Counted from the stretch's first letter, positions 27,601-63,373 are shown. The stretch is 64,000 bases of DNA from Minisyncoccota bacterium (GCA_041651395.1 JBAZJI010000001.1:315920-379919), one strand, 5' to 3'. The notes: a model not told the origin generated them from the sequence alone. A program made the numbers and translations.

Positions 27601-30600
27601 TTATCGCTTGGGCATTGGCACAACTACGCCTGCCTATCCCTTAGATGTGGTGGGCAATGCCAGAATAAGTGGCACAACTACGCTTGGCGCTTATGATATA
27701 ACAAAATATTCCGGAACCGATAATCAAGTTTTAACTTATGTCTCCGGCAAAGCGGTGTGGCAAACTCCGGCAGGCGGTGGCTTGCCTAATGGTACGGTTG
27801 GTTACACCTTAGTGAGTGGTGGCGGAGCGACATGGAACGCTACTAATACTTTGGTTGTAACTTCTTCGGCTCTTGGTTATCGAGTGGGTATCAATACGAC
27901 AACTCCGGCTTTTTCTTTGGATGTAGCGGGCACGGTTAATGCTTCGACTAGCGGTTATCGTCTGGGAACAAATAAGGGAATTATGCACGTTAGTACGAGC
28001 GCCGCACTCACTTCATGGACGCCCAATGGCGCTAATTCGGCAGGCGGGCTTTTTGTGGAGAGTGGGGCTGATGGCGGTTTCTCTGGCCTTTATATGGATG
28101 AGGATATGATAAAATTGGTGACTGGAGCTTCTGGCAATTTTTACCTCATGAATGGAGTTAATGCCACTTCCTTCTCTTTTGTCAGTGGTGGCGGTTTTGG
28201 TATGAATGGTGGGGCTAATAGTTTCATTTGGGCTACTTCTAATCCCAGCGCTATGAGCCCCGGGGTTGGGCGTTTGGGCATTTTGGAAAAAACCGGAACC
28301 GATGCGGTAGAAGTCCGCGATGCCGACTTGGCGGTTTATGGCACATCGACCATGCGCAATATTTTACCCGAAGCCAATTTAACTTACAGTTTGGGCAATG
28401 CCTCATATCGTTGGCTTAATATGTATGCCTCCACTACCTATATTGGTTCGGGCACTTGGCAGCTTTTGCAAGAAGGCGGCTCTGGCGCCTTTATCATCCA
28501 AGATACGGGTGGCAATCGGGCAGGCTTGCTTTATGTTTCCTCTACTAAAGGTGTAGCTATCGGGACCACGACCGTGATGAGTCAGGCCTTTAATTTAGAT
28601 GGTGCTGCCCTGTTTATTCCTACCAGTACCACTCCGGCTTCAGTAACCGGTTCGATGTATTACGATTTGACTAATAATCGATTCAGCTTTTTCCAGAATG
28701 GCGCTTGGAGTTCTTATACGGCGGCCAGTGGCACAGCCATGACCGGTGTGGCGGCCGGGTATAATTCCGTAGCATATTGGGCGGATAATAGTACGTTGGC
28801 GGGTACTTCCACATTTATTTATAATGCCACTTCTTCGCAGTTGGGCTTGGGTGCCACTTCTTCGCAGCTTTCCGCCATGTTGCAAATTAATACCACTGGC
28901 ACAATTTTTAATAATTTGCTTTTAAGTCGAACGCATAAAGGCGAAGGCGAATTGACAATCCAATCTAACACTACTTCTATCGCAATAAATTCATTGGAGC
29001 TTGGCACAATGGCCTTTGGCAATGTTTCATTGGGTCCTTCAGCTGGTGTGGTAGCTCTTGGCGGAGTCACAGCAATTGGATATCAGGCGGGGCATGTAAC
29101 AGTTGCCAGTACAACATTGGTTGGATATCAGGCGGGGTTATCTGGGCCAGGGATTGGTTTAACGGCAATCGGATATCAGGCAGCCACTGCAAATGGCGGA
29201 GGTGCATTTAATACAGCAGTTGGCTATTCCGCCTTGGCTGCTAATAGTTCCAATGATAATACGGCCGTTGGGTATAATTCCCTTGCATTAAATGCTGCCG
29301 CGAACAATACTGCTTTTGGCTCACAATCATTGAGCGTGAATGTTAATGGAATTGATAATACCGCAATCGGATATCATTCCATGAAGGCATTTAATCCAGC
29401 TTCAAGCGATGCAAATAATACTGCGGTCGGTTCCGATGTTTTACCTAATTTGCAGCAGGGAAGTGGAAATACAGCCCTTGGTTACAACACCGGACTAACA
29501 CAGTCAAGTGGTGATTCCAATATTTTTCTTGGCTCAAATATTCAGGCGGAGCCCGGATATACAACTGCGGATTATCGTTTATATATTGATGCGGACGCAC
29601 CGGATATGAACACTCCTGTTCCTCCCACTCCGCCATTTCAGTATGCGATTGTCGGGCAATTAAAAAATGTGGCCGCTGACGGAACCTATGGCCGCATACC
29701 GCACAATGCGATTGGCATCAATTCTTCGCAGGCTGATCTTGATGCGTCGCTGCTAAATTTTTATGTCTATGGCGCGGCCGGTGGTACGACGCCTTGGAAT
29801 ACTCTTTCGGATGCAAACCTTAAAGATGTTAATGGTGATATTTTTGGTTCGGCTTTAGGGATTGTAAATGCATTGCATCCCGTAAAGTATAAATGGAATG
29901 ATTTGGCGAACCAAGAATTCCAGCTCAATCAAAACGCAGAAAATTATGGATTTTTGGCGCAGGAGGTCAATAATATTCTGCCTTCAATAGTTGGTTCCGG
30001 TGGAAAATATTGGATGATGCGTTATGAAGGTATTATCCCGATTCTTACCGCCGCCATTCAGGAACAGCAAGCCCAAATCGAGGCTCTTAGGGTTGCCACT
30101 TCGAGCTTTGCTGGCAATGTTACGGTTAGCGAGCTTAAAGTGGAAGGGAGGCTGATTGTTAAAGATAACGTGACATTGGGCCTTGATACGGTTGGTCAAG
30201 TTATGGTGCCCACAGGGCAAGCCAGTGCGCATATTGCTTTCAGTAAAGCTTATGATACTTTGCCCATTATTACTGTTACGCCTATTGGCATAATTGACGC
30301 CAAATTTGGGGTGGATAATATTACCAAGTCTGGTTTTGATCTGGTGGTCAGCCCGGCCCAGAACCAAGAAATGTTCTTTAATTGGCACGCCTTTGCCATT
30401 GCCGACGAAACTAAGATTATCGTAGCTAATAGTTCGCCTGTTGTAGCTGCGCCTTTTGTCCCGAGTGTGCTGCCCACAAGTACCCCCGAAGTTGCCCCAA
30501 CCTCCACAGAGGCTGTGAATTCCAGCAGCAGTGAGCCGATAATTAATAATGAAATAGCTACATCCTCGGTCTCTTCCACTTTACCCGAGGCGGTAAGCAG

Positions 30601-56291: not shown

Positions 56292-56326
56292 AAAACTCCG
56301 GCCCATTAAGGGTCGGAGTTTTTTTA
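56292..56326. terminator. Bidirectional terminator
   Basis: AAAACTCCGGCCC-ATTAA-GGGTCGGAGTTTTTTT lies between convergent genes. Confidence 0.75.
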
Positions 56327-56800
56327 TAACCGTTGAGACTTTTTCTTTTCTTCGCGCCACTCAATCAGATCTTCTTTGTCGCAATATTCCAACCAAGTGC
56401 CATCGGAGGAAACTACATACCATTTCTTTTTGGCCTCACTCCAAACCATTGGGTCGCCCATATAAAAGGGTTTTTTAACAATTTCTTTGGGTTTGAGTTT
56501 ATCAAGCTCCAGCCATTTTTTGAAAACAGTTTCAATCGAGTAGTCTAAATTCCGGCTGCTGGCCCAGTCTGCCACCTTGCGGATGGCGTCTATTGCTTCC
56601 TGCGGGCTACCGGCCAAATCAATAAGCTGTTTGGCGGGTTTGGTAAAGCGGGAATAGATTATTTTTCTCTTTTTGGCATCTTCTTTTATTTGTTCTAAAG
56701 TTAGGCCCTTGGTTTCAAAATAAAAATTAACCACCTTTTGGATAGGGGAAGGCTCGGGTAGAGTTTGCTGGATATGCTTCTCGGCTTTCTTTTTGGGCAT
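56324..56800 (-). CDS. Hypothetical protein co-transcribed with PadR-like regulator
   Basis: 158 aa, lysine-rich. It starts 5 nt downstream of the PadR-like gene on the minus strand. Confidence 0.5.
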   Translation of the reverse strand: MPKKKAEKHIQQTLPEPSPIQKVVNFYFETKGLTLEQIKEDAKKRKIIYSRFTKPAKQLIDLAGSPQEAIDAIRKVADWASSRNLDYSIETVFKKWLELDKLKPKEIVKKPFYMGDPMVWSEAKKKWYVVSSDGTWLEYCDKEDLIEWREEKKKSQRL

Positions 56801-56805
56801 TTTAA

Positions 56806-57120
56806 TTAAGAGATATTAGTGAGAGCGTTTTCCAATAAGTCTTTGGCTTTGCGCAATTCCTCGTTTCCCTTGGGAGTGATTTTATAAATTCTTTTGCGAT
56901 CAATCAAATAACTTTTAACAAAACCATCTTCTTCGAGGCGATATAAAACTCGGTAAGCTGTAATCTCGCCCGGCTTAAAACCGAATTTTTTTTCGATGAG
57001 CTCTCGCATTTCGTAAGCATAGAGCGGATGGTCTTCATTAGCATTCTTTACCAAGACCAAAATATACATCCAGAGATTTTCGATGGTATTTGATTGATTG
57101 AGGCGTTCAATTGGCAGCAT
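56806..57120 (-). CDS. PadR-like winged-helix transcriptional regulator (paralog 1)
   Basis: 104 aa. The pattern LWMYILVLV...YAYEM..LIEKKFGFKPGEITAYRVLYRLEEDGFV....R.YKITPKG is PadR-like. Confidence 0.7.
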   Translation of the reverse strand: MLPIERLNQSNTIENLWMYILVLVKNANEDHPLYAYEMRELIEKKFGFKPGEITAYRVLYRLEEDGFVKSYLIDRKRIYKITPKGNEELRKAKDLLENALTNIS

Positions 57121-57127
57121 AGGCTTG

Positions 57128-57155
57128 TTGACTTACTATTTTACACCTGTAAAAT
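57128..57155 (+). promoter_or_regulatory. Promoter of PadR-like paralog 2/HAD operon in the divergent PadR intergenic region
   Basis: TTGACT (57128), 16-nt spacer, TAAAAT (57150). The near-palindrome TTACACCTGTAA overlaps the spacer and -10. No SD precedes ATG 57205. Confidence 0.45.
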
Positions 57156-57204
57156 AAAAATGAAAGACTTGATTTATCATAAAATAAATTTTTTAATATT
57201 CAAT

Positions 57205-57519
57205 ATGCAACCCCTTGAAAGGCTCAAAGCCAGCACCACGTCAGGGAATATCTGGATTTATATTCTACTTTTAGGTAAAGATCGGGATGTGATTTCCGAT
57301 AAACTGCCGGAGCTTATTTATGAAAAATTCGGATTTTTGCCGAATAGCGTTTTGGCTATGGCGGTTTTGTTCCGGCTTAAAGCCGAAGGCTATGTTACTC
57401 AAGAGAGATTTCAAAGCCAATCAGCCTACAAAACCACTTCTAAAGGTTTAGACGAGCTTAATCGGGCCAGAGAATACACTTTAGGCCTTTTGGAAAGATT
57501 CAGAAAAGCGCAGGCATGA
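57205..57519 (+). CDS. PadR-like regulator (paralog 2)
   Basis: I use ATG 57205; the track start at 57094 runs through the divergent promoter. The 104-aa product aligns with paralogs 1 and 3 (IWIYILLLG..LIYEKFGFLPNSV..LFRLKAEGYV). Confidence 0.6.
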   Translation: MQPLERLKASTTSGNIWIYILLLGKDRDVISDKLPELIYEKFGFLPNSVLAMAVLFRLKAEGYVTQERFQSQSAYKTTSKGLDELNRAREYTLGLLERFRKAQA

Positions 57520-58175
57520 ATGGCTATAAGGCAATAATTTTTGATCTTGATGGAACAACTTTGGATACTGAAGGTGTCCATTTTGATAGTTGGAATTTTG
57601 CCTTGGCTAAACACGGCAAAAATCTTTCTGAACAGGAATATCTCCGATATGCCGGGCGCCATGAGCAGATAGTGGCTAGTGCGGTTATTCCGGATTTGAA
57701 AATTTCCGACTTAACGGTTGAAAAACTCATAGATTACCGGCACGAATATCTCGATACACATATGTATTGCGGCCTTAAATACATGCCCGGAGCCCTGCAG
57801 GCCCTGGAAAAGTTTAATGAAGAGAATTTTATCGTGGCGGCCGCCACGGGTGGTATTTTGGGAGAAACACAGCGTAAAATTCAGAGTGCGGGGTTACAAA
57901 AGTATTTTCGTTTGATAGTGTGTGCCGACCACGTCAAGAGAGGGAAGCCCTTTCCAGATATTTATGAGTATTGTGCTGACCGGCTCGGCGTTGTGCCCAG
58001 CCAGTGTTTAGTTTTTGAGGACTCCAATCCAGGTGCCTTAGCCGCTTTTCAGGCCGGCTGCCATGTAGTGGCTATTCCGAACCGCTGGACAAAGGAGCAG
58101 GATTTTTCTATGGCTATTGCGCGGTTCGAAAATTTTGATCAAGCAATGGAATATTTTTTCCCCAATAATGTTTGA
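57516..58175 (+). CDS. HAD-superfamily hydrolase (beta-phosphoglucomutase-like subfamily IA)
   Basis: 219 aa. Motif I is IIFDLDGTTLDTE; it also has KRGKPFPD and FEDSNPG. ATGA overlap with PadR-like paralog 2. Confidence 0.85.
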   Translation: MNGYKAIIFDLDGTTLDTEGVHFDSWNFALAKHGKNLSEQEYLRYAGRHEQIVASAVIPDLKISDLTVEKLIDYRHEYLDTHMYCGLKYMPGALQALEKFNEENFIVAAATGGILGETQRKIQSAGLQKYFRLIVCADHVKRGKPFPDIYEYCADRLGVVPSQCLVFEDSNPGALAAFQAGCHVVAIPNRWTKEQDFSMAIARFENFDQAMEYFFPNNV

Positions 58176-58227
58176 CAAAGCGGGATATTTTGGCAAACAT
58201 AAGAAAGCAACTTAAATCGAAAGGAGG
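58172..58227 (+). promoter_or_regulatory. Promoter + SD of 192-aa gene
   Basis: TTGACA (58172), 17-nt spacer, a weak -10 AAACAT, then the leader TTAAATCGAAAGGAGG (58213-58227). Confidence 0.45.
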
Positions 58228-58235
58228 CGGGGGCT

Positions 58236-58814
58236 ATGATTTCGGCGCCAGTGAGCACTGTTTTGATTTGGGATCCGGTTGATGTTCTTATTCATGACCA
58301 GAATGCGCTTGCACCAACCGGCAGTGGGGAAATTTGTTTTGAAAGTCGCAATGAGTCATTAGTGCCTCTGACCTTGATTGCCCGACTACCAGAAGTCAGG
58401 CAGATTATCTCAACCATCGTCAGTAGGCATTTATTCCATGATTGGATAGCATATTATAAATTGGACGGGTTGTTTGTTCGGTCCTATTTTTCCAAGAATG
58501 GAACAGCCAAAGAGCATTGTGATTTGATAAAAAACGAATTTCCAACGGCAAAGCGGATAATTTATATTACCAGTGTTGCGCGCAACCTTGACGCACTTTG
58601 TTCACTAGCCGGCCCGGAAAAGAGATTTGAGTCGCCGTGGCAGGAAAAGAAATTGCTCACTTTGGCGTTTTGTCCACACGAATGCCGGTGCCAATTTCGC
58701 GACGCTCAAGCCATTCAAAGATTGGCGGGATATTTTCAAAGAGGTGCTGATCTTATCGTGCAGAATACTGCTGAAGTATACGAAATTGTGCAAAGTTTGT
58801 TAGCTAAACCATAA
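58236..58814 (+). CDS. Hypothetical protein
   Basis: 192 aa with an SD-class leader (TTAAATCGAAAGGAGG) and its own terminator. No family recognised. Confidence 0.55.
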   Translation: MISAPVSTVLIWDPVDVLIHDQNALAPTGSGEICFESRNESLVPLTLIARLPEVRQIISTIVSRHLFHDWIAYYKLDGLFVRSYFSKNGTAKEHCDLIKNEFPTAKRIIYITSVARNLDALCSLAGPEKRFESPWQEKKLLTLAFCPHECRCQFRDAQAIQRLAGYFQRGADLIVQNTAEVYEIVQSLLAKP

Positions 58815-58834
58815 GCGGGGAATTCCCGCTTTTT
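58815..58834 (+). terminator. Terminator of 192-aa gene
   Basis: GCGGGGAATTCCCGC followed by TTTTT. Confidence 0.75.
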
Positions 58835-58862
58835 ATCCTTTATTTATAAGGATTTTCCTATA

Positions 58863-58891
58863 TTGACTAATTAAGCAATATATGGTATACT
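58863..58891 (+). promoter_or_regulatory. Promoter of PadR-like paralog 3
   Basis: TTGACT (58863), 17-nt spacer, TATACT (58886). The leader contains the small hairpin AGTCG-GATTA-CGACT and has no SD. Confidence 0.5.
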
Positions 58892-58923
58892 ATAAAATAT
58901 AGTCGGATTACGACTCAAAATAT

Positions 58924-59235
58924 ATGCTTAAGTTCACAACGCCCAGCGAAAAGCTGCAGAAGACTACTACCCACGATAATTTGTGGATGTACATCTTGTA
59001 TTTAGGATACGAGAAAGAAATCCCAGTTGAAGATGTGCCGCGTCTGATCTATGAGCAGTTTGGCTTTTTGCCTAACGCCATAGTGGTGGAAACTGTTATG
59101 TTTAGGTTGCGCAAGAAAGGATATATTTCCGACGAGTGCTACCAAAGCAAGGCAGCTTTCAAAACCACCAAGAAAGGAGCCCAACAGCTCACTTCTATGG
59201 AACAGATGTTCAAGGAAATGTTGCAGATTTTCTAA
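58924..59235 (+). CDS. PadR-like regulator (paralog 3)
   Basis: 103 aa. LWMYILYLG..LIYEQFGFLPNAI..MFRLRKKGYI..FKTTKKG is closest to paralog 2. Its promoter is TTGACT-17-TATACT. Confidence 0.6.
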   Translation: MLKFTTPSEKLQKTTTHDNLWMYILYLGYEKEIPVEDVPRLIYEQFGFLPNAIVVETVMFRLRKKGYISDECYQSKAAFKTTKKGAQQLTSMEQMFKEMLQIF

Positions 59236-59249
59236 ACTCTAAAGCAAAA

Positions 59250-59271
59250 GCCCCGCAATCGCGGGGTTTTT
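59250..59271 (+). terminator. Terminator of PadR-like paralog 3
   Basis: CCCCGC-AATC-GCGGGG followed by TTTTT. Confidence 0.8.
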
Positions 59272-59300
59272 GTGTCTAATAAAGCTGAAATTTTGTAGGG

Positions 59301-59356
59301 TTGCAAAAAGTATGTTTTGTGTTATATTTTTATCAGCAAATTAAATCGAAAGGAGG
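59301..59356 (+). promoter_or_regulatory. Promoter + SD of HAD2/ATP-grasp operon
   Basis: TTGCAA (59301), 16-nt spacer, TATATT (59323), then the leader TTAAATCGAAAGGAGG (59341-59356). Confidence 0.55.
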
Positions 59357-59362
59357 TTTGCG

Positions 59363-60079
59363 ATGGATTTCAAAGGAGCTATTTTGGACTTCGATGAAGT
59401 TTTGGGGCGAACCGAAGGCTATCAATATCTCAAGTGGAATGTGATCTTAGGGCCGCGCTACGGTGTTTGGCTGACTCCGCAGGATTACGCTTCAAAGTAT
59501 TGCGGAAAATCATCCAAAGATGAGATTCCAGCGCTTTTGTGCCAGCATTTTCCACAGATAGAGATTAGCCCAAGCAAATTGGCTGATCTTGCCCGCCAAG
59601 AACTCGATTATTTTTTTGGCGAGCATAAGATTGAGCTTATGCCTGGGGCGCATGCTGGTTTAGTGACGCTTGCCAACTACTTTGGCTTGGAAAATATGTC
59701 GGTATGTTCAGCCAAAAATGATGAGGAATTGGAGATGAAACTGGTTAGTGCGCAAGTTGAGTGGTGGTTTCCGGGAACAAAAGATAGGAAGCATCGTTCT
59801 ACGCAAGAGGAAGCGGGAAAAGGAAAGCCGGCGCCAGATATGTATATTCTGGCTGCCAAGCGTTTAGGGTTTGAGCCTAAAGAGTGTTTTGCGGTTGAAG
59901 ATACGCAAGCAGGAGTAGATGCAGCTGCCGCCGCTGGCGTTTATGTGGTGGCAATGCCAACCATATTCTCGACCGGCCAAGATTTGAGCCGCGCCAATTT
60001 GATTCTTAAAGGTGGCTGGCCAGAGTTTATTGCCAATGCAGAATTGATTCTGAATTGCAAATATGTTCCAAGTGCGTAG
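59363..60079 (+). CDS. HAD-superfamily hydrolase, divergent motif I
   Basis: 238 aa. Motif I is AILDFDEVLGRTE; it also has GKGKPAPD and VEDTQAG. Confidence 0.72.
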   Translation: MDFKGAILDFDEVLGRTEGYQYLKWNVILGPRYGVWLTPQDYASKYCGKSSKDEIPALLCQHFPQIEISPSKLADLARQELDYFFGEHKIELMPGAHAGLVTLANYFGLENMSVCSAKNDEELEMKLVSAQVEWWFPGTKDRKHRSTQEEAGKGKPAPDMYILAAKRLGFEPKECFAVEDTQAGVDAAAAAGVYVVAMPTIFSTGQDLSRANLILKGGWPEFIANAELILNCKYVPSA

Positions 60080-60086
60080 AGGAGGA

Positions 60087-60908
60087 ATGATGCTAAAAGT
60101 TGTTTCGATTTATCGCGAAACAAAAAATGCAGGCAAGCCAAGGGCGGATAATGAGATCCTGGATAAAACTGGAACCCAATTTTCCAAACGAAGCTTCGAA
60201 ACGTTCTATATGGCGGCAGATGATTTTCTAGCGAATCTCGGAGCTCAATATAGCGCTGACATAATTCTAAGCATGGCTAGAGGCCCACAGATAAATAGTA
60301 CTCTGGCACTACTTCAAAGGCAGACGAATGTTTTTATTGTAAATCCGCCAGAAGCAGTGAGTGCGAGTTTGAGCAAAGTTGATACGTACAGGAGGCTTGA
60401 CCGTTTTGGCGTGTTGATTCCTAAATGCGAGATTTGGGAAACCGAAGCTCTGCAGAACCTTGAACTAAAAGGCAAGCAAATTTTGAAATCTGCCTATGGG
60501 CACGATATGTGGTTTGTGGTGCAAAATGCCAGCCAGCTCGAAGCTGCAATGAACTACTACCAGAAAAAGGGAATTGAGCAGGTAATAAAGCAGGATTTTA
60601 TACTCGGAGTCGATATAAAATTCTATGGAATCGGAGATCGGGTTATCCTGCCAGAGAGCGCAGATAGCTTACCGTGCGAGATCTTGAACAAGATTCCGAT
60701 TGCCGTAGAGCAGATCCGCAAAGCCACAAGCTTAGATGTTTTTGGTGGAGATCTAATCGCTGATGTCGCCAGCAATAAGCTTTATTGCGTTGATGCGAAT
60801 GACTGGCCAAGCTTTGGAACACTGGCGAATTATTCTCAAAGCCAAGCGGCACAAGATATTGCAACGCACATCATTGACAGCTTTAATGCTCAGAGAAGTA
60901 ATAAATAA
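60087..60908 (+). CDS. ATP-grasp-like enzyme (RimK/inositol-phosphate-kinase-like fold)
   Basis: ATG 60087 directly follows AGAGGAGG inside the HAD gene's 3' end. It has ILKSAYGHDMWFV, VIKQDFI.G.DIKFY and the terminal motif CVDANDWPSF. Confidence 0.55.
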   Translation: MMLKVVSIYRETKNAGKPRADNEILDKTGTQFSKRSFETFYMAADDFLANLGAQYSADIILSMARGPQINSTLALLQRQTNVFIVNPPEAVSASLSKVDTYRRLDRFGVLIPKCEIWETEALQNLELKGKQILKSAYGHDMWFVVQNASQLEAAMNYYQKKGIEQVIKQDFILGVDIKFYGIGDRVILPESADSLPCEILNKIPIAVEQIRKATSLDVFGGDLIADVASNKLYCVDANDWPSFGTLANYSQSQAAQDIATHIIDSFNAQRSNK

Positions 60909-60987: not shown

Positions 60988-61602
60988 ATGTTAGACACAA
61001 AAAGACATCTATTCAAAGGACTTGAGGGTTTTGTTGCAAATACTTTTGCCAAACTCCCATTAAGTGCTAATCAATACACTTATCTCTCGATTGTGTTTGT
61101 ATTGATTAGCGCATACTTAATAATCAGCCGAGAATTCTATTGGGCATTGGCGTTCTTTGCCCTCTCTGGCTTAATGGACTTCGTCGATGGCTCTGTGGCT
61201 CGCGCTAAGGGCACTTCGGGCCCTTTTGGGGCATATTTGGATACGGTAGTAGACCGGTACATCGAAGGCATAATAATCGTTTCATTAATGTTTTTGCCTT
61301 TGCCGCATTTCTTGAACATACCGCATTATATTTGGATTGGAGCGTTTTTATTCGGATCGATTGCCACGACGTATGTAAAAGCTGCTGCTTCTGAAAAAAA
61401 ACTTGTGGATAGGGAGCTAGTGGGAGGGGTAATGTCGCGCGGAGAAAGAATTATTATGCTGTGTATTGGAATTTTGCTGGCAAACTTTAGTTATACATGG
61501 TGCATGTACGTTATCGTATTTTTGGCCATAATGAGCAACTATACGGCTTTACAAAGAATAACTTCAGCCTTTCGCAAGTCAAAAACAATTTTATCAGCTT
61601 AA
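60988..61602 (+). CDS. CDP-alcohol phosphatidyltransferase family protein
   Basis: 204 aa, polytopic. Signature DFVDGSVARAKGTSGPFGAYLDTVVDRY (D-G-x2-A-R-x8-G-x3-D-x3-D). Confidence 0.8.
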   Translation: MLDTKRHLFKGLEGFVANTFAKLPLSANQYTYLSIVFVLISAYLIISREFYWALAFFALSGLMDFVDGSVARAKGTSGPFGAYLDTVVDRYIEGIIIVSLMFLPLPHFLNIPHYIWIGAFLFGSIATTYVKAAASEKKLVDRELVGGVMSRGERIIMLCIGILLANFSYTWCMYVIVFLAIMSNYTALQRITSAFRKSKTILSA

Positions 61603-61604
61603 AG

Positions 61605-61633
61605 AAAAATCCCGCTTTCAAGCGGGATTTTTT
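61605..61633. terminator. Bidirectional terminator between CDP-alcohol transferase and radical SAM genes
   Basis: AAAAATCCCGCT-TTCA-AGCGGGATTTTTT. Confidence 0.8.
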
Positions 61634-62642
61634 ATAGCACTCCGGATACTCTGGCACCGCATTTTTGGCAACTGCCATTATTGTCATTTCTTTTTGTCAC
61701 ATTCTGGCGGCGTTGGATTAAAACATCTTGGCACTTGGGGCAGAGAGTGTTATTTAGCGGTTCGGCTTTTTGTTTGGGCAAATAAACGTATTGTAATCCG
61801 GATTTTTTCCCAAGGGCTACAATATCAAGTAGGCTTGCGTTTTCCGGCGCGTTGCTACTCTCTAGTTTCCAAGAAACTGCCGGATCAAATGCTAAAACAT
61901 GCCAAGGCGTCTGGGCGCCCAAGTCTGTTTTAATATAGCTGGCCAGTGAGGCAAGCATCGAAATATGGTCGTTTTGTTTAGGGATGATAAGAGTGGAAAT
62001 TTCCAGCCAAATGCCGGCATCTTTGAGCCGTTTGCAAGTGTCTAAAACCGGTTGTAAGGCAGCATTGCAATTTTCCTTATAAAATTTTTCGCTAAACGAT
62101 TTAATATCAATATTAACCGCGTCTAAATAAGGCGCAACCATCTCAAAAAGTTCCCGGCTCCAAAAACCATTACTATCCCAAACGTTTTTTAGCCCGGCTT
62201 GGCGCGCTAAGCGCATGGTATCATAAGCAAATTCGGAAAACATGGCCGGGGAAGTATAAGAATAGGCGATTGATCGGCAGTTTTGGGTTAGGGCCAAATC
62301 AACAATTTCCTGCGGCTCATAGGGATGGCCAAAAGTATCGCCACTCAGCCGCGGCTTTTGTGAAATATTCCAGGTTTGGCAATTAGCGCACATCATATTG
62401 CAGCCCGCACTCCCGATTACCAAAGCCAAGCTGCCGGGCAAAAAGTGATATAGGGGGATGCTTTCGATTTTTTGTATCTGCAGGGCGACAATTTGGCCAT
62501 AATTAAGCGCCATAAGCTCGCCATTTTTATTTTCGCGGACTTGGCACATGCCGCGCTTGCCTTTTGCCACCTGGCAATAATGGGCGCAGTTCAGGCAGCT
62601 GATATTTTGGCCGCTGGCTTTTTGCAAATAAACTTTTTTCAT
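61632..62642 (-). CDS. AmmeMemoRadiSam-system-type radical SAM enzyme (PFL-activase-like)
   Basis: 336 aa. N-terminal Cys cluster CLNCAHYC..GKRGMCQVREN, then PLYHFLPGS, then the radical SAM motif GCNMMCANCQTWNIS. Confidence 0.82.
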   Translation of the reverse strand: MKKVYLQKASGQNISCLNCAHYCQVAKGKRGMCQVRENKNGELMALNYGQIVALQIQKIESIPLYHFLPGSLALVIGSAGCNMMCANCQTWNISQKPRLSGDTFGHPYEPQEIVDLALTQNCRSIAYSYTSPAMFSEFAYDTMRLARQAGLKNVWDSNGFWSRELFEMVAPYLDAVNIDIKSFSEKFYKENCNAALQPVLDTCKRLKDAGIWLEISTLIIPKQNDHISMLASLASYIKTDLGAQTPWHVLAFDPAVSWKLESSNAPENASLLDIVALGKKSGLQYVYLPKQKAEPLNNTLCPKCQDVLIQRRQNVTKRNDNNGSCQKCGARVSGVL

Positions 62643-63373
62643 TATTTGGCGCGTTTGATTTTTGTTTTTACCTTTATCCCTAATGCTTTGGCTGCGGGTT
62701 TGATAAAAGTTTTGTTAAATTCTCTGGCAGTGTTGAGGATTTTAGCTAAAATCGGAATCGCCATGTAAATAAAGTGTGAGTGGTGGCCAAGGCCCATTGT
62801 TTGTTTTTTCAAAATTCCCTGTTTTACATCTTCGATAGTTTTTGCATTGGGAATTTCGGTATAGCTATCGCCAATGCCAGCGGAGAAATGAGCGTCCGAT
62901 CCTCCAGTCATGGCTAAGTTGTATTTTTTGGCGCAGGCTAAAGCTTTTTCATTAAAATCTCCCCATGGCCGGCGGGCATTAAATACTTCCATGCCGTCAA
63001 TTATATCCAAGTAGTCCTCGATATTGCCCTTGAAGCCTTCATAAAAATGAAAAGGGTGAGGAATAATGGCGAGACCTCCTTGGTCGTGTATTTGTTTGAT
63101 AACGTCGCGTAGCTCGTGGCCCAAACCGTCGATTTGTTTGTTAATAAAAAGCGCCAAGACATCTCCTTGTTTGGTTTTAATTTCTTCGCCACGGATAATT
63201 ATAGCGCCGGTTTCTTTAGCAACCGTATCAGCATCTTTCCAACAGCGGCAATTTTCGTGATCGGTTATAGCGATACCATCTAAGCCTTTTTTTTGGGCAA
63301 CTTTTACAATTTTGCGTAAAGATGAGAGCCCGTCGTAGGAATATCGCGTATGACAATGCAGGTCCAGTTTCAT
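62642..63373 (-). CDS. PHP-domain metallophosphoesterase
   Basis: 243 aa. Motifs DLHCHTRYSYDG, IAITDHEN, IPHPF and GGSDAH. Its stop overlaps the start of the radical SAM gene. Confidence 0.8.
   Translation of the reverse strand: MKLDLHCHTRYSYDGLSSLRKIVKVAQKKGLDGIAITDHENCRCWKDADTVAKETGAIIIRGEEIKTKQGDVLALFINKQIDGLGHELRDVIKQIHDQGGLAIIPHPFHFYEGFKGNIEDYLDIIDGMEVFNARRPWGDFNEKALACAKKYNLAMTGGSDAHFSAGIGDSYTEIPNAKTIEDVKQGILKKQTMGLGHHSHFIYMAIPILAKILNTAREFNKTFIKPAAKALGIKVKTKIKRAK

Follow-up and report, generated by a model that had tools for sequence, protein, structure and literature searches.

A PadR-type gene, its conserved candidate operator and a rearranged, predicted inositol-phospholipid gene cluster in a Minisyncoccota bacterium

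Bacteria of the candidate phyla radiation (CPR), or Patescibacteria, have very small genomes that encode few transcription factors, and little is understood of their membrane-lipid biology. What is to be made, then, of a locus in which three small genes resembling PadR regulators lie close together, two of them followed by a gene for a phosphatase of the HAD family? This locus occupies positions 56806-60079, treated here together with its flanking genes, of a 64-kb stretch of DNA from an uncultured Minisyncoccota bacterium (GCA_041651395.1, JBAZJI010000001.1:315920-379919), which is referred to below as the window. A preliminary description of the same DNA had proposed a locally amplified regulator-plus-phosphatase unit and, with it, a family of small-molecule-responsive switches. 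Comparison with related loci points to a different origin. The region is probably a lineage-specific rearrangement of a cluster comprised of a PadR-type gene (PadA), an operator, a myo-inositol-1-phosphate synthase (MIPS) gene, a second PadR-fold gene (PadB), a CDP-alcohol phosphatidyltransferase gene, in some cases a HAD gene, and a gene for a PHP-family phosphoesterase, with PadA as the predicted repressor and PadB in an accessory role. The apparent amplified module would thus be a reshuffled conserved operon and not a new modular family of switches.

One genome per species was scanned, which gave 80 related loci of approximately 10 kb each, annotated by dedicated open reading frame (ORF) calling and by phmmer searches against the window proteins and marker genes. 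Locus L001 is the species representative of the window, L081-83 belong to the sister species and L084 is a Logan contig. Homologs of the three small genes, here named par1, par2 and par3 (Table 1), come nearly all from metagenome-assembled genomes of Candidatus Paceibacterota/Parcubacteria within the CPR. All promoters and terminators discussed are predicted sites, assigned from sequence scans and direct reading.

The operator and the small proteins beside it

The divergently transcribed par1 and par2 are separated by a region of 84 bp (57121-57204) bearing the near-palindrome TTACACCTGTAA at 57141-57152. Both features had been pointed out in the preliminary description and, like the ATGA overlap at 57516-57519 of the par2 stop with the start of the first HAD gene (HAD1), can be read directly from the DNA. 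The near-palindrome looks functional, forming the centre of a larger, 20-bp candidate operator that is conserved in most related species examined. The pattern TATTTTAC-N4-GTAAAATA has only one site with two or fewer mismatches in the entire window, and that site is perfect. Its core, TTTTAC-N4-GTAAAA, occurs exactly once per locus in 60 of the 80 loci, adjoins PadA in 59 and normally sits between PadA and MIPS. When mismatches are allowed, 67 loci can be aligned, in which the information content is about 1.8-2 bits at each position of the arms and about 0.2-0.4 bits in the spacer (35 different spacers), and the flanks are unconserved apart from an upstream TTGACA hexamer in the -35 position. 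Nearly invariant arms around a free spacer are what the binding of a symmetric dimer would be expected to leave.

The right arm of the operator contains the -10 element (TAAAAT) of the rightward promoter TTGACT-16-TAAAAT, the -35 hexamer of which is conserved across the 67 aligned loci. The left arm, read on the opposite strand, provides a TAAAAT 16 nt upstream of the start of par1, which lacks a Shine-Dalgarno (SD) sequence, and this distance is similarly short in other loci. An operator shared by the regions upstream of par1/par2, par3 and the second HAD gene (HAD2) was sought and rejected: none was found, the next-best site in the window being a single match with three mismatches at 29521, which is within chance expectation. 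In about ten loci (L006, L017, L030, L031, L033, L041, L045, L047, L069 and L073), a second, weaker operator-like site is located exactly 18 bp away, start to start, with the terminal TA common to both, an arrangement that suggests tandem binding of two dimers in these lineages.

The three proteins encoded beside this operator are indeed paralogs of 103-104 aa with the coordinates and strands first described, as borne out by ORF listing and by homology in pairwise BLASTP. Similarity is greatest between par2 and par3, as had been noted (42% identity, E 4e-33), and lower between par1 and par2 (40%, E 2e-22) or par1 and par3 (33%, E 9e-17). The core consensus offered for all three is schematic, since par1 reads LIEKKFGF in place of LI(Y/E)E(K/Q)FGF and the dots in the string do not represent true spacings. 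Among related species, the homologs fall into two clean families. PadA proteins are par1-like, with roughly 60% identity to par1 and a Pfam PadR match, and PadB proteins are 99 aa in length, with 45-50% identity to par2 and to par3 and no Pfam match. In a neighbor-joining (NJ) tree, par2 and par3 are sisters inside the PadB clade, and the two genes appear to represent a duplication of PadB confined to this lineage.

The par1 protein passes the Pfam PadR model (PF03551) with 41.8 bits against a threshold of 27, and the PadA profile matches 45 PadR-type sequences of the Protein Data Bank (PDB), for example 5dym (E 6e-9), 4esb and 3f8b, with BcPadR, LmrR and Rv3488 among the proteins concerned. 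It is a canonical PadR subfamily-2 protein and an additional member of that subfamily. Neither par2 nor par3 matches PF03551 at E <= 1 or any NCBIfam PadR model, nor does a sequence search of the PDB with the PadB profile reach any PadR structure; across Pfam, NCBIfam and PDB, the sequence-profile searches for PadB give only sub-threshold matches to PaaX, HTH_45 and AspA. The AlphaFold2 (AF2) model of par2 (pLDDT 89.3) displays the elements H-H-H-H-E-E-H, and all 19 of its 19 best Foldseek matches in the PDB are of PadR subfamily-2 type, with TM-scores mostly of 0.66-0.78. The single-domain winged helix-turn-helix architecture of subfamily-2 is thus seen in par2 by model and in par1 by sequence profile, and extends to par3 only through its 42% identity to par2. 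Together, the PadA profile matches and the fold match of par2 indicate that all three proteins share the PadR fold. The original label of PadR-like is sound for par1 on Pfam and profile evidence and for par2 on its fold, with the qualification that profile searches do not class par2 or par3 as PadR.

Both PadB copies are functional proteins under strong purifying selection, with dN/dS ratios of about 0.03 (par2) and 0.06 (par3) relative to the sister species, for which dS is near saturation. Amino acid identity between the window and L081 is 83% for par2, 83% for par3 and 78% for par1, compared to 64% for HAD1, 61% for the transferase and 32% for orf192, such that the regulators are better kept than the adjoining enzymes in this comparison.

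The two families part company at the residues that contact DNA. In the Bacillus subtilis PadR (BsPadR), Tyr20 and Tyr42, along with the basic wing residue Lys67, are the main determinants of DNA binding (PMC5728393). Equivalent positions were compared in a joint alignment of 67 sequences per family, mapped through PDB alignments. The Tyr20 equivalent of PadA (position 36) is W or Y in 67/67 sequences (Y36 in par1), the Tyr42 equivalent (position 56) is Y in 67/67 (Y56 in par1), and T54, Y56, R57 and Y60 are identical in every one of the 67. With a basic wing of the form R-R/K-R (R75/K76/R77 in par1), the canonical motif of two tyrosines and a basic wing is present in par1 and in PadA generally. 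In PadB, the Tyr20 equivalent is E, K, D, Q or G in 61/67 sequences, with no aromatic among the frequent residues (D in par2, E in par3), and the Tyr42 equivalent is K in 42/67, with no Tyr among the frequent residues (M in par2, E in par3). The PadB wing is mostly G/S-K-K, giving way to SKA in par3 and to SQS in par2, where its basic character is lost, and the N-terminal half of helix 3, the 'recognition' helix, is variable. The canonical PadR DNA-binding motif is therefore missing from par2 and par3. Net charge, tried as a further discriminator of DNA binding, was uninformative, PadA and PadB both being basic.

The invariant recognition elements of PadA match an invariant operator. Since the signature residues are kept throughout PadA and missing from PadB, and since the operator persists where PadB is missing, PadA (par1) is the likely binder of the operator. 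Such persistence of PadA and operator is found in L057 and seven other loci; within 3834-5894 of L057, MIPS is followed by the transferase across a gap of about 300 bp that holds no PadB homolog, and PadA and a perfect operator are both kept.

The inositol-phospholipid gene cluster and the HAD genes

The gene order typical of the related loci, found in about 60 of the 80, begins on the minus strand with efp, orf158 and PadA, crosses the operator, and continues on the plus strand with MIPS, PadB and the CDP-alcohol phosphatidyltransferase, optionally followed by orf231 and a HAD gene, before ending with PHP on the minus strand. The MIPS gene of this series encodes a protein of about 367 aa, identified by its matches to PF01658 (E 4.6e-37) and TIGR03450 (E 1e-137). 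In the window, the order to the right of the operator is instead par2-HAD1-orf192-par3-HAD2-ATP-grasp-transferase, such that PadB occurs twice and no MIPS stands between operator and PadB. L001, L084 and the sister species depart from the canonical order together with the window, and in L001 and L081-84 the locus likewise has no MIPS; of the other loci that extend that far, all except a few have the gene at its canonical position. For the transferase, the best NCBIfam model is the archaetidylinositol-phosphate (AIP) synthase model NF040950, followed by the phosphatidylinositol phosphate (PIP) synthase model NF045883. The ATP-grasp-like gene (orf273) also has counterparts elsewhere, a gene of this type coming next after PadB, ahead of the CDP-alcohol transferase, in at least six other species (L002, L029, L036, L037, L038 and L047). 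A weak likeness of orf273 to the ATP-grasp domain of inositol-1,3,4-trisphosphate 5/6-kinase was also recorded.

A HAD-family gene does follow each of par2 and par3, as the preliminary description stated, and both proteins exceed the Pfam HAD_2 threshold of 23.8 bits as well as the cut-off of TIGR01509 (HAD-IA v3). No NCBIfam equivalog model reaches its cut-off for either protein, the match of HAD1 to TIGR02009 (115.5 bits, E 3e-33) falling below the required 153.35. Motifs I-IV read DLDGT, AATGG, GKP and FEDS in HAD1 and DFDEV, CSAK, GKP and VEDT in HAD2. Their gene context makes these enzymes candidates for the dephosphorylation of an inositol phosphate or a phosphatidylinositol phosphate.

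The proposal that regulator and HAD gene were duplicated as a pair finds no such agreement. HAD1 and HAD2 share 31% identity and do not pair in the NJ tree, in which HAD2 joins the L012 HAD and HAD1 stands alone on a long branch. The sister species L081-83 has neither HAD2 nor orf273, and the transferase gene comes straight after par3 (L081, 10312-10426). A tandem duplication of regulator plus HAD is contradicted by this tree and this synteny: the two HAD genes were not duplicated together with par2 and par3, and are probably unrelated accessory phosphatases of the cluster. Direct pairing is also essentially not conserved. In other species, 58 PadB genes could be evaluated; 34 of them are followed by the transferase gene, 6 by the ATP-grasp gene and only 2 (L012 and L027) by a HAD gene. 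A looser association does recur, with a HAD gene in the same-strand run as PadB in 20/58 and within 5 kb in 24/58.

The transcription signals around par3 also separate it from HAD2. With a promoter and a terminator of its own (Table 1), par3 is read as monocistronic, and HAD2 lies behind a separate promoter. The hexamers of the par3 promoter are kept in L001 and L081-83 save for one change (TATACT/TATAAT), and the spacer between them varies. The palindrome AGTCG-GATTA-CGACT, between this promoter and the par3 ATG, is unique in the window and invariant in the sister species, a close relative. As an RNA structure, the par3 leader palindrome was rejected, its minimum free energy of -5.9 kcal/mol (z -1.09) not being significant.

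Predicted repression by PadA, its alternatives and known systems

In the reading judged probable above, par1 (PadA) would act as a classical PadR subfamily-2 homodimeric repressor at the single 20-bp operator (57137-57156), where one bound dimer would shut off both par1, or par1-orf158, and the rightward par2-HAD1-orf192 unit. This dual effect is predicted from the two arms, the right one supplying the rightward -10 and the left one the TAAAAT near the par1 start. PadB would be an old paralog of PadR fold whose gene, as a rule, shares a transcript with MIPS and the transferase, between which it lies, and its copies par2 and par3 would most likely serve as accessory modulators or sensors and not as independent operator-specific repressors. 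The two HADs, in turn, would contribute as unrelated accessory phosphatases and not as co-duplicated partners of the regulators.

Several observations weigh against this proposal. No -35 element is evident for the leftward promoter of par1, and L076 has an operator and a PadB gene without a PadA gene within the locus. A tblastn search of the 64-kb window with Paceibacterota MIPS found no such gene, and de novo inositol-lipid synthesis may have ceased to be the pathway under control here. The transferase falls below the equivalog cut-offs of its two best models, with 129.9 of the required 180 bits for NF040950 and 83 of 170 for NF045883. Furthermore, the median net charge is +7.5 for PadA and +4.5 for PadB and two wing lysines are kept in most PadB proteins, so PadB, with both families basic, may still have the means to bind DNA.

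The most serious competing explanation is that PadB proteins are DNA-binding regulators in their own right with non-canonical contacts, par2 feeding back on the operator and par3 regulating itself through AGTCG-N5-CGACT. The winged-helix fold is intact, the proteins are basic and under strong purifying selection, the par3 palindrome is unique in the window and invariant where the spacer of the adjacent promoter is not, and the second operator-like site at 18 bp in about ten loci could seat a second dimer. However, most of the energy of DNA binding in PadR comes from two tyrosines whose positions hold acidic, polar or lysine residues in PadB, the basic wing of par2 is lost, helix 3 varies while the operator remains invariant, and the operator survives without PadB; the par3 palindrome, known from very close relatives only, counts for little. 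Independent DNA-binding regulation of this kind by PadB is regarded as rather unlikely. Less likely again is the amplified module of the preliminary description, with three equivalent ligand-responsive PadR repressors and with par2 plus HAD1 and par3 plus HAD2 as switches for a ligand each. That par2 and par3 are mutual closest paralogs and sisters in the tree, that each precedes a HAD gene, that par2 and HAD1 are translationally coupled, and that PadB directly precedes a HAD gene in L012 and L027 all fit such a module. Set against these points are the low identity and separate branches of the two HADs (HAD2 going with that of L012), the promoter and terminator of par3 and the separate promoter of HAD2, the lack of HAD2 after par3 in the sister species, the rarity of the direct pairing elsewhere, the lack of an operator common to the upstream regions, and the missing PadR DNA-contact signature of par2 and par3, which also places three equivalent switches beyond the evidence. 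The module is regarded as very unlikely.

A role as PadR-fold architectural, segregation or termination proteins of AspA or RTP type is extremely improbable. A sub-threshold RTP match of par1 (E 0.004) and an AspA match of the PadB profile (E ~0.5) hint at it, and RTP is among the fold matches, but these are far weaker than the matches to PadR, and a single operator per locus placed exactly on a promoter, along with the chromosomal setting of the genes inside a metabolic operon in most of the related species examined, argue against it. A more speculative extension of the favored repression by PadA, quite unlikely as it stands though somewhat less so than the amplified module, would have PadB no longer binding DNA at all but pairing with PadA in heterodimers, or titrating it, and so serving as a sensor or anti-repressor, in a circuit rewired here to host-derived inositol phosphates. 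It draws support from the fact that PadA and PadB are most alike in their N-terminal 24 residues (helix 0/helix 1), which form part of the subfamily-2 dimer interface. Were it true, a two-paralog circuit would govern the synthesis of membrane inositol-lipid head groups in most Paceibacterota examined, and in the window the duplicated PadB and the extra phosphatases would have rewired that circuit after the loss of MIPS at the locus.

Set beside known regulators, par1 resembles LmrR from Lactococcus lactis, Rv3488, CdPadR_0991 and BcPadR1/2, all of them proteins of about 100-115 aa that consist of one winged-helix domain and dimerise through a C-terminal helix. As in PadR subfamily-2 systems, a palindromic operator overlies the promoter of adjacent divergent genes, but whereas those repressors target drug efflux and detoxification genes, the predicted target here is an inositol-phospholipid cluster. 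The B. subtilis PadR site consists of 6-bp repeats with a 6-bp spacer (PMC5728393), in contrast to the 8-N4-8 arrangement of TATTTTAC and GTAAAATA. The PadB proteins par2 and par3 depart from subfamily-2 repressors in having no conserved Tyr/Tyr/Lys motif, and, unlike in subfamily-2 systems, two paralogous families, PadA and PadB, reside side by side in most related species.

Inositol-lipid clusters with some of the same enzymes are known from Bacteroidetes, where MIPS, an NTP-transferase, a CDP-alcohol transferase and a HAD whose role is unconfirmed form an 'alternative' cluster, alongside that of Bacteroides BT_1522-1526 (PMC9246714). Like the related Paceibacterota loci, these group MIPS with the CDP-alcohol transferase, and the alternative cluster includes a HAD as well. 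Here, unlike there, neither a PgpA-like PIP phosphatase nor an NTP-transferase is present, the archaeal AIP synthase model is the one nearest to the transferase, the partner that recurs more constantly is a PHP phosphoesterase, genes of PadR type lie within the cluster, and MIPS is missing in the window. Control of inositol lipids by a dedicated factor has a parallel in IpsA (PMC3899939), a LacI-type regulator that in Corynebacterium and Mycobacterium acts on ino1 (MIPS). Like PadA as proposed here, IpsA controls the inositol-phosphate synthase and hence the inositol-derived lipids; unlike PadA, it belongs to the LacI and not the PadR family and is not known to lie beside its target in a divergent arrangement with one operator for both. 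IpsA is reportedly an activator that responds to inositol.

In the full-text literature searched, no paper links PadR with MIPS and no inositol-lipid cluster is described for Patescibacteria. The predicted inositol-phospholipid operon as target, the 8-N4-8 operator and the conserved co-residence of a canonical and a contact-deficient paralog appear to be new. With its near-invariant operator arms, a PadR-type predicted repressor and an inositol-phosphate synthase/transferase operon, this is one of the clearest predicted cis-regulatory circuits in CPR bacteria, and the locus makes testable whether Paceibacterota make inositol phospholipids, how these would be controlled, and what part is played by a DNA-contact-deficient paralog.

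Other features of the locus

Table 1. Genes and predicted sites at the locus, in window positions (strand +, - or, for palindromic sites,.)
Feature	Position	Strand	Basis or remark
orf158, conserved hypothetical	56324-56800	-	directly downstream of PadA; 60 related ORFs
par1 (PadA)	56806-57120	-	104 aa; Pfam PF03551; PadR signature residues kept
Rightward sigma-70-type promoter, TTGACT-16-TAAAAT	57128-57155	+	10/12 consensus positions
Candidate operator, TATTTTAC-ACCT-GTAAAATA	57137-57156	.	20 bp; 8-bp inverted arms, 4-bp free spacer (8-N4-8)
par2 (PadB copy 1)	57205-57519	+	104 aa; no Pfam match; PadR subfamily-2 fold by AF2
HAD1, HAD-IA (beta-phosphoglucomutase-like) phosphatase	57516-58175	+	Pfam HAD_2, 106.6 bits, E 2e-30
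orf192, divergent homolog of cluster gene orf231	58236-58814	+	hmmsearch E 5e-8; hhalign probability 92.9%
Terminator-like hairpin and T-run ending the par2-HAD1-orf192 unit	58813-58838	+	conserved in sister species
par3 promoter, TTGACT-17-TATACT with TG	58863-58891	+	promoter scan
Palindrome AGTCG-GATTA-CGACT	58901-58915	.	between par3 promoter and ATG
par3 (PadB copy 2), monocistronic	58924-59235	+	103 aa; 42% identity to par2
Terminator hairpin CCCCGC-AATC-GCGGGG and T-run	59251-59273	+	after par3
HAD2 promoter-like TTGCAA-16-TATATT and 22-nt leader	59301-59356	+	promoter scan
HAD2, divergent HAD-IA phosphatase	59363-60079	+	Pfam HAD_2, 50.7 bits, E 3e-13
orf273, ATP-grasp-like	60087-60908	+	weak RimK, MptN and Ins134_P3_kin matches
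CDP-alcohol phosphatidyltransferase	60988-61602	+	Pfam PF01066, 65 bits, E 1e-17; DxxDGxxAR..G..D..D motif
PHP-family phosphoesterase, convergent cluster end	62642-63373	-	Pfam PHP and PHP_C; 46 related ORFs

The translation signals of the locus had been taken to set enzyme genes apart from regulator genes. AGGAGG-type SD sequences are indeed present at 58236 (orf192), 59363 (HAD2) and 60087/60090 (orf273) and absent from par1, par2 and par3, but their absence is not specific to regulators: HAD1, the transferase, orf158, the radical-SAM gene, PHP and the MetRS gene also lack one, and SDs are absent in 90-98% of the genes of most gene families across the related loci. Genes with a strong SD are few in the window, and the three of the cluster that carry one are precisely its non-canonical members. 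A near-identical leader of 22 nt, AGCAA(C/A)TTAAATCGAAAGGAGG, precedes orf192 (58206-58227) and HAD2 (59335-59356); it is unique in the window and had no match in 100 shuffles, and could be either a scar of recombination or a translational leader common to both genes. Together, the SDs and the leader common to orf192 and HAD2 are hints of recombination or foreign origin, and orf192, HAD2 and orf273 may have been acquired late. Base composition was set aside as a sign of foreign HADs, the GC content of 0.47-0.49 against 0.34-0.44 being a modest and indecisive difference.

Rfam and tRNA scans of the window gave no matches. Among the flanking genes, orf158 is always the gene immediately downstream of PadA, usually with efp coming next, and its mean column identity of 70% across species is above that of the regulators. 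Its more than 3800 homologs are all annotated as hypothetical, no sequence match was found in Pfam, NCBIfam or PDB, and its AF2 model (pLDDT 74), with five helices and a five-stranded beta domain, has no Foldseek match in the PDB. At the other end of the cluster, a radical-SAM gene (61632-62642, minus strand) stands between the transferase and PHP; in many other loci it adjoins an AMMECR1 gene, for which a tblastn search of the window was negative.

A last observation extends beyond bacteria. In loci L069, L071, L077, L078 and L079, mostly labelled DPANN or uncultured archaea and including Aenigmatarchaeota, a PadA-like gene is divergent from MIPS, with a CDP-alcohol transferase gene after MIPS in three cases; those DPANN archaeal loci in which a PadA-like gene adjoins MIPS lack the bacterial operator. 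Since such loci exist and the best match of the window transferase is the archaeal AIP synthase model, the sequences suggest that a PadA-MIPS-transferase linkage is common to both domains.

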